A DNA stretch of 64,000 bases, taken from assembly GCF_054482595.1 (NCBI RefSeq), contig NZ_CM137008.1, one strand, 5' to 3'. Made by a program: the position numbers and the translations under genes. The notes under the pieces were generated by a model. It ran no database searches. It worked only from the letters and a program-made list of their open reading frames with translations, and was not told the DNA's origin. Position 1 is the first letter of the stretch. Each line of letters starts with the position of its first letter. Positions 10,675 to 14,182 of this stretch are shown here, one piece after another.

Positions 10675-10681
10675 TTATTCA

Positions 10682-10715
10682 TTTGCCGGAGTGGGCGAAC
10701 ACCCACTCCGGCAAA
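10682..10715. terminator. Bidirectional hairpin between convergent artJ and sulfatase gene
   Basis: tttgccggagtggg-cgaaca-cccactccggcaaa perfect 14-bp stem. Confidence 0.6.
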
Positions 10716-10724
10716 ATCACTTCT

Positions 10725-12206
10725 CTACGCTAATCCCAGGCGCTGAAACTGCTCTGGCGGCGCATCATTATCTTTCATCAACTGAATCAGCAACGCGATC
10801 ATCCGGGACTCGATCACATCATCATGAATCGGATGTAGCTGCTGCGGATCGTTTTGCAGATCAAACAGCAAATGACCAAACTGATTCAACCCCTTATATT
10901 TTTCCTGTGCCGGGATGCGTAATACCTGTAACCCTTTGGTAAAACGAAACGGTGGGGCCAGCGATAAAGCCCGCATCTCATCCACCGGATAGCGGCTGTT
11001 CATTTTGCAGGACATCAACGTGTAGTTGGCAATATCATCCTCACGCCCCGGCAGCGCTGCACGCATATAGACAAAACGCCCATCGGTTACGTTAACATGA
11101 CCACTGAAGACACCAAACATCGCCGAGCTGCGTACTGGTTCATCGTGACTGACCGTTTTCGCCAGCGGTTGCCCCTGCACATCGGGCGGCACTGGCTGTT
11201 GAAAAAAGTCATACAACGTTGGCGCCCAGTCGATCATTTGTACCAGTGCCTGTCGCCGCTCTCCTTTTACACCACTGCGCGGGTCCCAGATAAACAACGG
11301 ATTATTGGCAACTTCGTTGTAATAAGGCATCTGGTTTTTCGCCCACCAGCCATGCTCACCGAGTAAAAAGCCGTGGTCAGTGCCGACAATCAGCATGGTA
11401 TCTCGCCACAGATCGTGCTCATCCATCAGGTCGAGAATGCGCCCCAGGTTGCGATCGCACATCGACACCAACGAACGATACCGGCAACGGATGTGCTCCA
11501 CGGCCTCGTCGCTTTCCTGCACCCGGCCACGCGGCCAGTCATAATGCGGTCCATCCCAGTTATCTTCATACAAGGAAAGATACTCTTCCGTTGTGTGAAA
11601 CGGCTCGTGCGGATCAAACGTTTCGACCTGCAATAACCAGTTATCTTCCGCGTGATTTTTGTGGATAAAGGCACAGCCTGCATCAAACACTTTAGTTTGT
11701 GGAAAATCCGCTTCCTGCTGAATATATTCCCGGTTTGCCCAGTCATGGCGCCACAGACCAGAAACACCGCCACCGGTCTGCTTTTGCGGCACCCGTAGCA
11801 CCTCGGGAATAGGCGGTTGCGCAACGCTTGCATGCCAGTGATCGCCTTCCTGTCCGCGCACAATCTCCCACGAACTGTAGCGATTATGATAATTCCCGCC
11901 GCCATCTTCCCAGTAATGCAAATGATCGCTTATCAGGTGGGTATAGATCCCCGCCTTTTTAAGCAGCTCCGGCATGGAATCGTCAAACGGTTCTAACGGC
12001 CCCCACTCCCGATGCAGGAAGTTACATCGCCCGGTATGCAACTCCCGCCGGGCAGGCATACACGGCATACTGCCGACGTAACTGTTTTCAAAGGTGGCGG
12101 CATGAGCCGCCAGACGTTGGAAATTAGGCGCTTTGGTTAACGCATCGCCATAAGGTGGCAGATAACGTTTATTCAGACTATCGAACAGCAGAATAATCGC
12201 TCTCAT
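10725..12206 (-). CDS. Cys-type sulfatase (arylsulfatase family), predicted cytoplasmic
   Basis: 493-aa ORF; signature C-M-P-A-R-R-E-L-H-T-G-R near N-terminus; no signal peptide (starts MRAIILLFDSLNKRY); not present between artJ and rlmC in K-12. Confidence 0.85.
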   Translation of the reverse strand: MRAIILLFDSLNKRYLPPYGDALTKAPNFQRLAAHAATFENSYVGSMPCMPARRELHTGRCNFLHREWGPLEPFDDSMPELLKKAGIYTHLISDHLHYWEDGGGNYHNRYSSWEIVRGQEGDHWHASVAQPPIPEVLRVPQKQTGGGVSGLWRHDWANREYIQQEADFPQTKVFDAGCAFIHKNHAEDNWLLQVETFDPHEPFHTTEEYLSLYEDNWDGPHYDWPRGRVQESDEAVEHIRCRYRSLVSMCDRNLGRILDLMDEHDLWRDTMLIVGTDHGFLLGEHGWWAKNQMPYYNEVANNPLFIWDPRSGVKGERRQALVQMIDWAPTLYDFFQQPVPPDVQGQPLAKTVSHDEPVRSSAMFGVFSGHVNVTDGRFVYMRAALPGREDDIANYTLMSCKMNSRYPVDEMRALSLAPPFRFTKGLQVLRIPAQEKYKGLNQFGHLLFDLQNDPQQLHPIHDDVIESRMIALLIQLMKDNDAPPEQFQRLGLA

Positions 12207-12217
12207 TACGCCCTACC

Positions 12218-12538
12218 TTATTGATTAATTAAATGCGGATAATGTTGCTGAACCACTTCATAAATTTGCTGACCAATAGTTTCACCGTCCATAATATTCT
12301 CTATCGGGATCAGATATTGCCCTTGTTTCGGGTCAAGACTAACCACATCGAGTAATTTTTTGGAAATTGCAAAAATATCCGCCCAGTCGGTAAATCCTCC
12401 TACTTCACCTGCGGCGGTATGTTCCATTTCAACTTTGAAATCATATTTGGTCAGCGCTTTTTTAACGACCGTTTGTAACATAACGCTACTGCCTACACCG
12501 TAACCACAGACAAACAGAATATTAATTGTATCTTTCAT
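12218..12538 (-). CDS. PTS EIIB component, ascorbate-family (UlaB-like)
   Basis: 106 aa, N-terminal ILFVCGYGVGSS phospho-cysteine loop like UlaB/SgaB; sits between EIIC and sulfatase. Confidence 0.75.
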   Translation of the reverse strand: MKDTINILFVCGYGVGSSVMLQTVVKKALTKYDFKVEMEHTAAGEVGGFTDWADIFAISKKLLDVVSLDPKQGQYLIPIENIMDGETIGQQIYEVVQQHYPHLINQ

Positions 12539-12559
12539 TTTTAAACCCTTAATATTTAA

Positions 12560-13903
12560 TTAACCCGCGTAAGGACCAAGATGGAATGTTGCAGCGATAA
12601 ATTTCAGAACTTCACAAATAGCAGGCCATACGGTTGCCCAGTCAAATATTCCTGTCCAGCCGACGCCATTTTCAGCAAGCCCGGTTAACGGAATAGCCCA
12701 CACCGTACCGAAGGTCTGAATAATACCCAGCAAGAACGTACAGATAATTACGGAACGGTATCCGCCCATGCGGTTTGCTAATACGCCAATTGGACCGCCA
12801 GAGAAAAACAGAGGTACAAAGCCAGGCAATACCATAATTGGGCTGTGAACCAGTAATAAGATCCCCATCGAAAAAATGGTGCCAAAAGTACAGAAGACGA
12901 AGCCTAACGTTGCGGCATTGGGTGAAAAAGGCAACAGCGCGGCGACATCGACGGCGGGAATGGCATTAGGAATAAAGCGATCCTGCCAGCCTTTAAACGA
13001 ACCGTTAATTTCGCCCACCATCATGCGCACACCCTGCAGCAGAATGACCATATACATGGAGAACTGTAAGCCAAGGTTGATGATATAGATGTACCAGGGC
13101 TTGCCTTTCGCCATTAACTGGACATTATCGATACCCGTTGATAGCAAGAAACCACCGACAAACAGCGTCATCACAATGGCGATAGCCGTTACGTTATGGT
13201 TAAAAATCGCCAGCCACCCGGGGAGTTTCAGGTTTTCAGCATCGTGCTTTTCGGGGTCACCAAATTTATGGGCGAATTTGGAGAAAAACCACAATCCCAA
13301 CATCTGGTTATGAGCAATGGTAAAACCAGCATCTTTGGTAACTTTGGCAATGGGCTTAACAATGAGCGTGGTGGAGAACGCCCAGAATACACCCGTTAAT
13401 ATTCCGGCAATAATAATGGATGTAGTCCAGCTAAAACCCAGCCAAAAGACAATCAACCATAATACCGCCTGAGAATGTGAAACACCGGTATTCCCTGTCA
13501 AAAATATCCCTTTGGCACCAGTATACCGACCAAATAATACCAGCAGCAGGTTGGTAAAAAACGCCAGTACAAATACATACCCGACATAACCAAAATTATC
13601 CCCCAATGCAATTTGCGTTGCCGCTTTCATTGCGTAGGAATCCATTAAATATCCGTGAACACCATAGGCTTTACTTACGGCTTCTGCTACCGGTTTAAAT
13701 GTTGCGGAAAACTGGAAACCACCAAATAACACCATCATTAATCCCACCATGGCGCTGACCATGCCGGTAATAATTTTTATTGGCGATTTCTTATCAAGGG
13801 CATAACCAATACCCACCAGCAAACCAATTAAAATTGCCGGTTCAGTTAAAAACGTTTGAATAACATCTATGAATTTGGCAAACATCGTCGGAACGCCCTC
13901 CAT
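12560..13903 (-). CDS. PTS EIIC component, ascorbate-family (UlaA/SgaT-like)
   Basis: 447-aa polytopic ORF; shared UlaA blocks KLPGW, GVRM, PGF.P.FFS; alternative start at 13885 (MFAKF). Confidence 0.8.
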   Translation of the reverse strand: MEGVPTMFAKFIDVIQTFLTEPAILIGLLVGIGYALDKKSPIKIITGMVSAMVGLMMVLFGGFQFSATFKPVAEAVSKAYGVHGYLMDSYAMKAATQIALGDNFGYVGYVFVLAFFTNLLLVLFGRYTGAKGIFLTGNTGVSHSQAVLWLIVFWLGFSWTTSIIIAGILTGVFWAFSTTLIVKPIAKVTKDAGFTIAHNQMLGLWFFSKFAHKFGDPEKHDAENLKLPGWLAIFNHNVTAIAIVMTLFVGGFLLSTGIDNVQLMAKGKPWYIYIINLGLQFSMYMVILLQGVRMMVGEINGSFKGWQDRFIPNAIPAVDVAALLPFSPNAATLGFVFCTFGTIFSMGILLLVHSPIMVLPGFVPLFFSGGPIGVLANRMGGYRSVIICTFLLGIIQTFGTVWAIPLTGLAENGVGWTGIFDWATVWPAICEVLKFIAATFHLGPYAG

Positions 13904-14090
13904 AAGCGTACATTTCCGTTGTCAATGCATGAACCTTCTGCTGACGTTAATAATGTCTCAGGAAATTTTGTGTTTCGCTAAGCAATGCCTCTGTATGTAT
14001 TCGGTAAGTGCACTGTAGTAATCAAAACAGTTCAATTAAAGATCTTATTTGATTATTTGTGATTTGATTTGCAAAAATAGAGCAATATAT

Positions 14091-14132
14091 AACCGTGATC
14101 GATCGGTTATTATTAATCGATCGATCACGATT
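14091..14132. promoter_or_regulatory. GATC-dense inverted repeat upstream of PTS-sulfatase operon
   Basis: cgtgatcgatcg (14094..14105) and its reverse complement cgatcgatcacg (14118..14129) separated by 12 bp; four GATC sites. Confidence 0.5.
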
Positions 14133-14182
14133 ATTATTTTGAGTGAATAGTTGTTGCCGAAAAATTTACTGCCGTGATGTAT

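Follow-up and report, generated by a model that had tools for sequence, protein, structure and literature searches.

A PTS–sulfatase cassette between artJ and rlmC of Escherichia coli: a proposed front end for ascorbate sulfate in the Ula pathway

The three genes at the artJ–rlmC locus

In this work, we analysed a three-gene cassette of Escherichia coli that combines components of a phosphotransferase system (PTS) with a sulfatase and is a candidate entry route for sulfated ascorbate. The cassette lies in a stretch of 64,000 nt (NZ_CM137008.1, assembly GCF_054482595.1), called the window here, and all coordinates are window positions unless another locus is named. The window sequence is identical to the chromosome of the urine isolate E. 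coli XH990, with window position 1 at record position 3114816. The three genes are all on the minus strand and encode an EIIC protein (12560-13903, 447 aa), an EIIB protein (12218-12538, 106 aa), and a sulfatase (10725-12206, 493 aa). They are flanked by the convergent genes artJ (9943-10674, plus strand) and rlmC (14183-15310, minus strand). All three are intact, the gaps between them are 21 and 11 bp, and a Shine-Dalgarno sequence is present at both junctions. The coordinates, strand, and gaps given in the initial annotation were borne out by the open reading frames (ORFs) and by the RefSeq annotation of XH990. The Shine-Dalgarno sequence of the EIIB gene is AAGGG, located 8 nt upstream. At the next junction (12204-12220, minus strand), the EIIB stop codon lies inside the ribosome-binding site of the sulfatase gene (TAAGGTAGGGCGTAATG), which suggests that the two genes are translationally coupled. 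The corresponding junction in Firmicutes is a 4-bp overlap, as in locus L010, where EIIB ends at 8004 and the sulfatase starts at 8001.

The EIIC protein matched NCBIfam model NF009550 with 964 bits (cut-off 583) and the ascorbate IIC models with 321-354 bits, and it is 38% identical to E. coli UlaA in tblastn. The Pfam domain PF03611 (EIIC-GAT) was found on its 95% identical Salmonella orthologue. It is predicted to be a membrane transporter of the L-ascorbate (Asc/SgaT, EIIC-GAT) PTS family. In the EIIB protein, the N-terminal segment VCGYGVGSS (residues 9-17) holds the active-site Cys11, as read from the sequence. The NCBIfam ascorbate IIB models were matched at 7e-11 and 1e-12, below their cut-offs, and PF02302 was found on the Salmonella orthologue. 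The protein is predicted to be a UlaB-like carrier that passes the phosphoryl group to the EIIC-bound substrate. The initial labels of a UlaA/SgaT-like EIIC, a UlaB-like EIIB, and a sulfatase thus hold by NCBIfam and Pfam matches, weak as the EIIB scores are. No EIIA gene was found in the cassette or its flanks among the window ORFs and the RefSeq annotation, nor in the Salmonella, Enterobacter, and Yokenella loci, and no regulator gene was found in or near the enterobacterial cassette.

The residues of UlaA that bind ascorbate are T86, Y87, H135, I136, Q139, H194, Q195, D314, I358, F362, and M410, while S59 and R288 contact ascorbate O3 (PMC6048161). The cassette EIIC retains Y87, H194, D314, F362, and R288, together with G58 and G286, and shows the conservative changes T86S, I358V, and M410I. 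The remainder of the set has been replaced (H135N, I136T, Q139S, Q195N, and S59G). Because the binding residues are only partly kept, the protein is, by its sequence, a member of the Asc family and not a UlaA equivalog.

The third protein matched the Pfam sulfatase family PF00884 at 1.7e-28, and SGSH_C was also matched. Its sulfatase signature, C49-M-P-A-R53, is invariant among 15 diverse homologues (61-86% identical), and so are D9, H95, H97, H200, D277, H278, and K290. The catalytic domain begins at residue 3 and there is no signal peptide, so the protein is cytoplasmic. An AlphaFold2 model was obtained with a mean predicted local distance difference test score (pLDDT) of 72.8 and a predicted template modelling score of 0.82. 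In a Foldseek search with this model, nearly all of the top 50 PDB matches were S1 sulfatases, one being a phosphonate monoester hydrolase (2vqr); the matches had a probability of 1.00, TM-scores of 0.55-0.66, and identities of at most 19%. By sequence, 40 PDB sulfatases were matched, without a close relative of solved structure among them. Residues 45-73 and 279-300 of the model have pLDDT below 50, and the active-site loops are too uncertain for an analysis of the pocket. The predicted activity is that of a cytoplasmic, Cys-type (formylglycine) S1-family sulfatase. Throughout the family, the position of the second metal-binding Asp is occupied by Ser or Thr10 (Ser10 here), and an invariant Asp94 stands at the position of the Lys of the GKWH motif.

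Linkage of the sulfatase to PTS and ascorbate genes

The fetched sulfatase loci were surveyed by tblastn and divided into those with a sulfatase at least 60% identical to the window protein and those with one 52-58% identical. The identity is 62-67% to proteins of Bacillota and Olsenella, and 52-58% to a very broad sister group. An orthologous EIIC-EIIB pair was located directly upstream of the sulfatase in all 18 distinct assessable loci of the first class, which cover three phyla and include the window. On the other hand, PTS genes were found in none of the 72 loci of the second class. The sulfatase-linked EIIC proteins are 57-69% identical to that of the window in Bacillota and Olsenella, and 89-95% identical in other Enterobacteriaceae. 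From Enterobacteriaceae to Bacillota and Olsenella, these genes keep the order EIIC-EIIB-sulfatase. In the Firmicutes cassettes, a DeoR-type regulator precedes these genes, and an EIIA_2 gene is placed before the cassette, after it, or fused to the sulfatase C-terminus, as in the fusion proteins P0082 (635 aa) and P0044 (643 aa). The start of the EIIA gene and the stop codon of the sulfatase gene overlap in Clostridium porci. The fusion of a phosphocarrier domain to the sulfatase is strong evidence that the PTS and the sulfatase act on the same substrate stream. With high confidence, we consider the three genes to be a unit for PTS uptake followed by cytoplasmic desulfation. The initial annotation had proposed this order of events, and the conserved gene order, the EIIA fusions, the lack of a signal peptide, and the linkage to ula genes described below speak for that part of it; ascorbate-2-sulfate, which it had named as one candidate substrate, is here a matter of inference.

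Given its coupling to a PTS, the enzyme presumably acts on a sugar phosphate. It shares the S1 fold, the CxPxR motif, and the metal and sulfate ligands with characterised S1 sulfatases from gut Bacteroides (among them the GlcNAc-6-sulfatase BT4656, BT3177, and BT1918) and with the choline sulfatase BetC. However, it is at most 19% identical to these over the fold, is cytoplasmic and not secreted, is coupled to a PTS, and has Asp94 and Ser10. The sister sulfatases (loci L022-L093) occur in Actinomycetota, Chloroflexota, Paenibacillus, Planctomycetota, and others. They have the same length as the cassette enzyme, the same invariant catalytic residues, and likewise no signal peptide, but they are typically found beside CUT1-type sugar ABC transporters and not beside a PTS. 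The residues E67, R226, K436, Y437, W327, and Y295 are specific to the PTS-linked clade, and the basic R226 and K436 are candidate ligands of a 6-phosphate. A gene for the formylglycine-generating enzyme (FGE) is located near 12 of the 72 sister loci (median distance 592 bp), and one for an anaerobic sulfatase-maturating enzyme (anSME) near 9 of them (median 373 bp). Since these maturases adjoin members of the sister family, the whole family is a candidate for formylglycine dependence. Around the 72 sister loci, the only recurrent genes were those of transporters, maturases, and regulators, with occasional glycoside hydrolases of families GH1 and GH3, and no catabolic gene gave a clue to the substrate.

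Alternatively, the enzyme might be a promiscuous hydrolase of the alkaline phosphatase superfamily whose substrate is an ester of phosphate or phosphonate, such as ascorbate-2-phosphate or a phosphodiester. Asp94 in place of the GKWH Lys and the pair D9-S10 in place of two Asp are also seen in some phosphonate monoester hydrolases, structures of which were among both the sequence and the fold matches, and there was a weak NCBIfam match to the phosphoric/sulfuric ester hydrolase PehA. Against this, nearly all the top fold matches are sulfatases, and genes for FGE, anSME, or a TauE-type anion exporter are found alongside members of the family. We also know of no natural source of ascorbate-2-phosphate, whereas the 2-sulfate is common in animals. 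A phosphoesterase is therefore quite improbable.

Two of the surveyed loci contain further genes that touch on this arrangement. In a gut metagenome contig (L099, 1-10488), the DeoR-EIIC-EIIB-sulfatase cassette is adjoined by a TauE-type anion exporter, an anSME radical-SAM maturase, and a GntR regulator, and a second sulfatase is accompanied by a mannose-type PTS (EIIAB, IIC, and IID). It seems that cytoplasmic sulfatases are repeatedly combined with a PTS in gut Firmicutes. In a Lachnospiraceae metagenome-assembled genome (MAG; L016, 11687-17935), a second Asc-family EIIC-EIIB pair with a UlaA-type pocket is located directly downstream of the cassette, together with a SorC/DeoR-like regulator, a 640-aa ORF without a match in NCBIfam, an EIIA, and a further DeoR regulator. 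Judged by its genes, this locus comprises two Asc-type PTS systems in tandem.

The linkage to ascorbate catabolism was seen outside the enterobacteria. Homologues of ula catabolic genes were located within 10 kb of the cassette in 6 of the 14 distinct non-enterobacterial PTS-linked loci, the independent lineages being those of Bacillus sp. SD088, Neobacillus niacini, Bacillus sp. FJAT-50079, a Clostridium MAG, an Oscillospiraceae MAG, and Olsenella sp. An285. Their products are 55-73% (UlaG), 42-54% (UlaE), and 48-63% (UlaF) identical to the E. coli enzymes, and UlaD (55-57%) was found in the three Bacillaceae loci only. In N. niacini, eight co-directional genes with short gaps follow the order EIIA-EIIC-EIIB-sulfatase-UlaG-UlaD-UlaE-UlaF. 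In Bacillus sp. SD088, a DeoR-EIIA-UlaG-UlaD-UlaE-UlaF operon is divergent from EIIC-EIIB-sulfatase. No catabolic genes other than ula recur beside the cassette in the surveyed PTS-linked loci, as would be expected if the product of desulfation were already an intermediate of an existing pathway. The ula operon itself is nearly universal in E. coli, being found in 5425 of 5426 complete genomes. In Sebaldella, a survey of UlaG from 2011 recorded a sulfatase "inserted" into the ula regulon and left it uninterpreted (PMC3219644).

The transporter sequences are consistent with an altered ascorbate site. In all 13 sulfatase-linked EIIC proteins compared, the transmembrane segment TM4a reads GN(A/T/S)G.(A/S)H (GNTGVSH in the window), replacing GHIMFQQ of UlaA. 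The changes S59G, Q195N, M137G, Q139A/S, and I136 to a small residue are common to all 13; H135 is replaced by Asn (Gln in one protein), and Q140H is found in 12 of the 13 (Gln in one). The second EIIC of the Lachnospiraceae locus, which is not linked to a sulfatase, keeps the UlaA-type GHIM. Because S59 and R288 contact O3 in UlaA, the smaller residues of the altered TM4a wall, together with the new His, could accommodate an additional anionic group on the enediol side of an ascorbate scaffold, near O2/O3.

The same mechanism might operate on a different substrate, which could be a sulfated sugar derived from mucin or glycosaminoglycans (a hexose, hexuronate, or aldonolactone) or an ascorbate sulfated elsewhere than at O2. 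No ula genes are near the cassette in 8 of the 14 non-enterobacterial loci, and by sequence the most similar proteins of solved structure are sulfatases of carbohydrates, among them the GlcNAc-6-sulfatase BT4656 and a mucin-desulfating enzyme. Moreover, the non-PTS sister family stands beside sugar ABC transporters and GH1/GH3 glycosidases, and the gut contig described above pairs its second sulfatase with a mannose-type PTS. However, the ula genes are the only catabolic genes that recur beside the cassette, and the EIIC keeps most of the UlaA residues in contact with ascorbate. In N. niacini, a single operon has the sulfatase gene placed after the PTS genes and before ulaG, and UlaG is a dedicated L-ascorbate-6-phosphate lactonase. 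We therefore consider a different sulfated substrate rather unlikely.

Likewise, the ester could be imported mainly for its sulfate under sulfur limitation, as in the Ats system of Pseudomonas, with the carbon skeleton being incidental. Many bacterial arylsulfatases are sulfate-starvation proteins, and the Enterobacter cassette adjoins a gene for an arylsulfate sulfotransferase. On the other hand, the neighbours of the cassette are the carbon-catabolic ula genes and DeoR-type sugar repressors, and not cys, ssu, or tau genes. The TauE-type anion exporter adjoining one cassette suggests that sulfate is a waste product there. Sulfur scavenging as the main function is improbable, although it is compatible with the use of ascorbate sulfate as a carbon source and does not compete with it exclusively.

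Proposed import and desulfation of ascorbate sulfate

We hypothesize that the cassette is a front end that takes ascorbate sulfate into the Ula pathway, an interpretation that we regard as somewhat more probable than its negation. None of the alternatives accounts for the linkage to ula as well. The most likely sulfated form is L-ascorbate-2-sulfate, an oxidation-stable form of the vitamin and a regular metabolite of mammalian plasma and urine. In the proposed route, EIIC would bind L-ascorbate sulfate, likely the 2-sulfate, outside the cell. EIIB, phosphorylated by an ascorbate-type EIIA in trans, would then phosphorylate O6 of the substrate during translocation. In Enterobacteriaceae, this EIIA would be UlaC, as suggested by the presence of ula in all but one of the complete E. 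coli genomes. The Asc-family PTS phosphorylates O6, which is far from O2. The cytoplasmic formylglycine sulfatase would hydrolyse the ester to L-ascorbate-6-phosphate and sulfate, and UlaG, UlaD, UlaE, and UlaF would convert L-ascorbate-6-phosphate to D-xylulose-5-phosphate. Hydrolysis of ascorbate-2-sulfate is known from the mammalian arylsulfatases A and B, which are lysosomal formylglycine sulfatases of broad specificity that act on the unphosphorylated compound with no coupling to transport, while the cassette enzyme is coupled to a PTS. L-Ascorbate-6-phosphate would also release the repressor UlaR, of which it is an effector in vitro (PMC5934670), and for this reason we propose that the cassette and the ula loci are induced together.

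Several observations weigh against this interpretation. The 8 non-enterobacterial PTS-linked loci mentioned above have no ula gene within 9-10 kb, although such genes may lie elsewhere in the genome, as they do in E. coli. The enterobacterial cassette has neither its own EIIA nor its own regulator, and the roles of UlaC and UlaR are assumed. The data do not discriminate between O2, O3, and other places for the sulfate group, and every step of the mechanism is inferred from sequence. In the sulfatase, Asp94 for the GKWH Lys and Ser10 for the second metal-binding Asp depart from the canonical motifs, and the active-site loops were modelled with low confidence (pLDDT below 50 for residues 45-73). 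Finally, E. coli is devoid of FGE, and the maturation of Cys-type sulfatases depends on AslB, YdeM, or a suspected further system (PMC8379841). Conversion of Cys49 to formylglycine in E. coli would thus need AslB, YdeM, or the suspected third system, and neither an FGE nor an anSME gene was found in the window.

The closest known system is UlaABC/UlaG/UlaDEF of E. coli (TC 4.A.7), which is repressed by UlaR. The cassette resembles it in the EIIC-GAT family of the transporter, the UlaB-like EIIB, and the key contacts to ascorbate, and the first intermediate of the Ula pathway, L-ascorbate-6-phosphate, is the likely product of the cassette. In contrast, the ula operon has no sulfatase, whereas the cassette has one together with the remodelled TM4a (GHIMFQQ to GNTGVSH). 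The enterobacterial cassette also differs from ula in that genes for an EIIA, a lactonase, and a regulator are missing in cis, and it forms an accessory locus of its own in genomes that have ulaABC as well. Among published systems, an accessory region of Streptococcus pneumoniae comes nearest; it encodes a cellobiose-type PTS and a putative sulfatase together with a ROK protein, and its substrate is likewise reported as unknown (PMC3283741). The two are alike as strain-variable combinations of a PTS with a sulfatase, but the pneumococcal PTS is of the Lac/cellobiose family and not of Asc, and a link to ascorbate genes is not reported for it. The initial view that the pairing is not a characterised pathway agrees with the literature searched. 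In the full-text articles searched, from a corpus that leaves most subscription journals outside its scope, we found no description of the cassette, of a bacterial ascorbate-sulfate pathway, or of a sulfatase-coupled Asc-family PTS, and none of the microbial fate of ascorbate-2-sulfate. A "putative sulfatase" of the O157 rumen proteome is YdeN and is unrelated to the cassette enzyme.

That the Ula pathway is extended here by a dedicated import and desulfation step is, in our estimate, slightly favoured. More tentatively, and at a little under even chances, this could be a pathway for vitamin C sulfate of a kind not recognised in bacteria before, served by a PTS that would be the first one dedicated to a sulfated compound and by a new sulfatase subfamily specific for a phosphorylated ester. 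The module is common among gut Bacillota, and Salmonella and enterohaemorrhagic E. coli (EHEC)/O157 have kept it, unlike K-12. If the tentative reading is true, these pathogens would gain access to an oxidation-stable pool of vitamin C that is excreted by the host. It would mean that the textbook Ula pathway has a new input, that a PTS can handle sulfated substrates, and that a function is defined for a large and unusually conserved family of cytoplasmic sulfatases, whose members are 55-66% identical across phyla. The sulfatase would also be a natural substrate protein of the elusive cytoplasmic Cys-to-formylglycine maturation system of E. coli, and thus a handle for finding that activity.

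Conservation, history, and flanking elements of the locus

In K-12 MG1655, artJ and rlmC are 198 bp apart, in line with the distance of about 0.2 kb given in the initial annotation, and the spacer is a repetitive extragenic palindromic (REP) sequence forming a bacterial interspersed mosaic element (BIME). The cassette genes are absent from that site. By BLAST, the homology of the window to K-12 breaks at 10682 and 14189, and only the intergenic segment differs. Among the complete E. coli genomes, the cassette was found in 566 of 5426, O157:H7 and O145 included, and never in more than one copy, which was chromosomal. It occupies the artJ/rlmC site in every E. coli copy with examined flanks (XH990, TUM13867, and O157:H7 strain 2149). 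In Salmonella enterica, it is found at the same rlmC/artJ site. The nucleotide identity between E. coli and Salmonella is 82.8% for the EIIC gene and 79.1% for the sulfatase gene, and the flanking genes are at a similar level (80.7% for artJ and 78.6% for rlmC). No integrase, insertion sequence (IS), or tRNA site was found in or around the cassette among the ORFs and the RefSeq annotation, and its GC content of 0.39-0.54 is unremarkable.

A recent horizontal insertion was rejected on these grounds, that is, the same site in Salmonella, the flank-like divergence, and the lack of mobility genes. Because the Salmonella copy shares this site and has diverged about as much as the core genes around it, the cassette is most simply read as an ancestral locus that K-12 and about 90% of E. 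coli later lost. The comparison across Escherichia proposed initially thus confirmed the absence from K-12, but the description of the genes as inserted probably had the wrong polarity, the simplest reading being that they were retained here and deleted in K-12. The module sets Salmonella, O157:H7/O145, and about 10% of E. coli apart from K-12 and most commensals, and on this basis it is a candidate determinant of niche or colonisation in the gut, urine, and cattle.

The ratio of nonsynonymous to synonymous divergence (dN/dS) of the three genes is 0.010-0.046 between the two E. coli haplotypes described below and 0.019-0.045 versus Salmonella, with the value for EIIB versus Salmonella not computable because dS is saturated. 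By gene, it is 0.010-0.019 for EIIC and 0.045 for the sulfatase, in the same range as for artJ and rlmC. All three genes are under strong purifying selection. In addition, the unit without EIIA and the conserved upstream block described below are kept in four enterobacterial genera and at more than one site. In Enterobacter hormaechei (L095, 2466-7485), the cassette is at a different chromosomal site and is divergent from an arylsulfate sulfotransferase (AssT-like) gene. In Yokenella (L097, 7542-7763), a fragment of an AssT-like gene adjoins it.

These data bear on the possibility that the cassette is an inactive relic in E. coli, unexpressed or non-functional for want of its own EIIA and regulator. 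Neither gene is in or near the cassette, about 90% of E. coli have lost it, and some strains carry truncated sulfatase variants or an IS1 insertion. However, the dN/dS of 0.01-0.05 across E. coli haplotypes and versus Salmonella, the three intact ORFs in both O157:H7 and XH990, and the retention of the EIIA-less unit with its upstream block in four genera make a relic very improbable, and a functional ascorbate-sulfate front end remains the preferred interpretation.

The E. coli copies form two haplotypes at the same site. Haplotype 1 is at least 99% identical to the window and is found in 410 genomes, O157:H7 and O145 among them, while haplotype 2 is about 91% identical at the nucleotide level and is found in 155. 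Between the two (window 10675-14182 and L002 4001-7475), dS is 0.43 for the cassette versus 0.22 for the artJ/rlmC flanks. This looks above the usual divergence within a species. Such deeply diverged haplotypes could be an old balanced polymorphism or an introgression from another Escherichia lineage. The identity to K-12 is 94.4% on the artJ side (10018-10681) and 98.2% on the rlmC side (14190-16000; rlmC and ybjO), and the recombination history differs between the two sides of the cassette.

E. coli, Salmonella, Enterobacter, and Yokenella share a conserved 71-bp block upstream of the EIIC gene (14010-14080, minus strand) with the inverted words TAATCAAA ... TTTGATTA, although the site of the cassette differs in Enterobacter. 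This block is presumably the promoter/operator region of the cassette. The block and the K-12 ulaA promoter region have the collinear words AATCAyAAATAATC and TGTTkTGATTACT in common. Six 12-mers with at most one mismatch are common to the two regions, compared with 0.92 in shuffled sequences. As a further point against shared control with ula, these words are AT-rich and only modestly above chance, since 3 of 200 shuffles also reach six. Control of the cassette by UlaR is a lead only. Scans with consensus promoters and terminators between 10600 and 14300 gave the same counts as shuffled sequences and no convincing sigma-70 promoter for the cassette.

Two inverted repeats lie in the intergenic segment. 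A perfect 14-bp inverted repeat (10682-10715, assigned to no strand) is located where the 3' ends of artJ and the sulfatase gene converge, and it starts exactly where the homology to K-12 ends. It is probably a transcript-end hairpin, with no canonical U-tract on either strand. Just past the rlmC stop codon is a GATC-rich palindrome of 36 bp (14094-14129, likewise assigned to no strand), CGTGATCGATCG-N12-CGATCGATCACG, which includes four Dam (GATC) sites. In Salmonella, the palindrome is preserved, its two arms having changed in a compensatory way (CGTG/CACG to CATG/CATG). Because it is absent upstream of the Enterobacter and Yokenella copies, it was rejected as an operator of the cassette and is probably the rlmC terminator or, less probably, a clustered-GATC regulatory site.

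A few other features of the window were recorded. A REP-like element in the artM-artJ spacer (9734-9769) is a 94% match, in reverse orientation, to part of the REP/BIME element of the K-12 rlmC-artJ spacer. According to the RefSeq annotation of the identical strain, the ybjQ-ybjP interval contains a truncated pseudogene of a pentapeptide-repeat protein (4192-5427), and the ybjL-rcdA interval contains a gene for a serine acetyltransferase of 183 aa (26009-26560).

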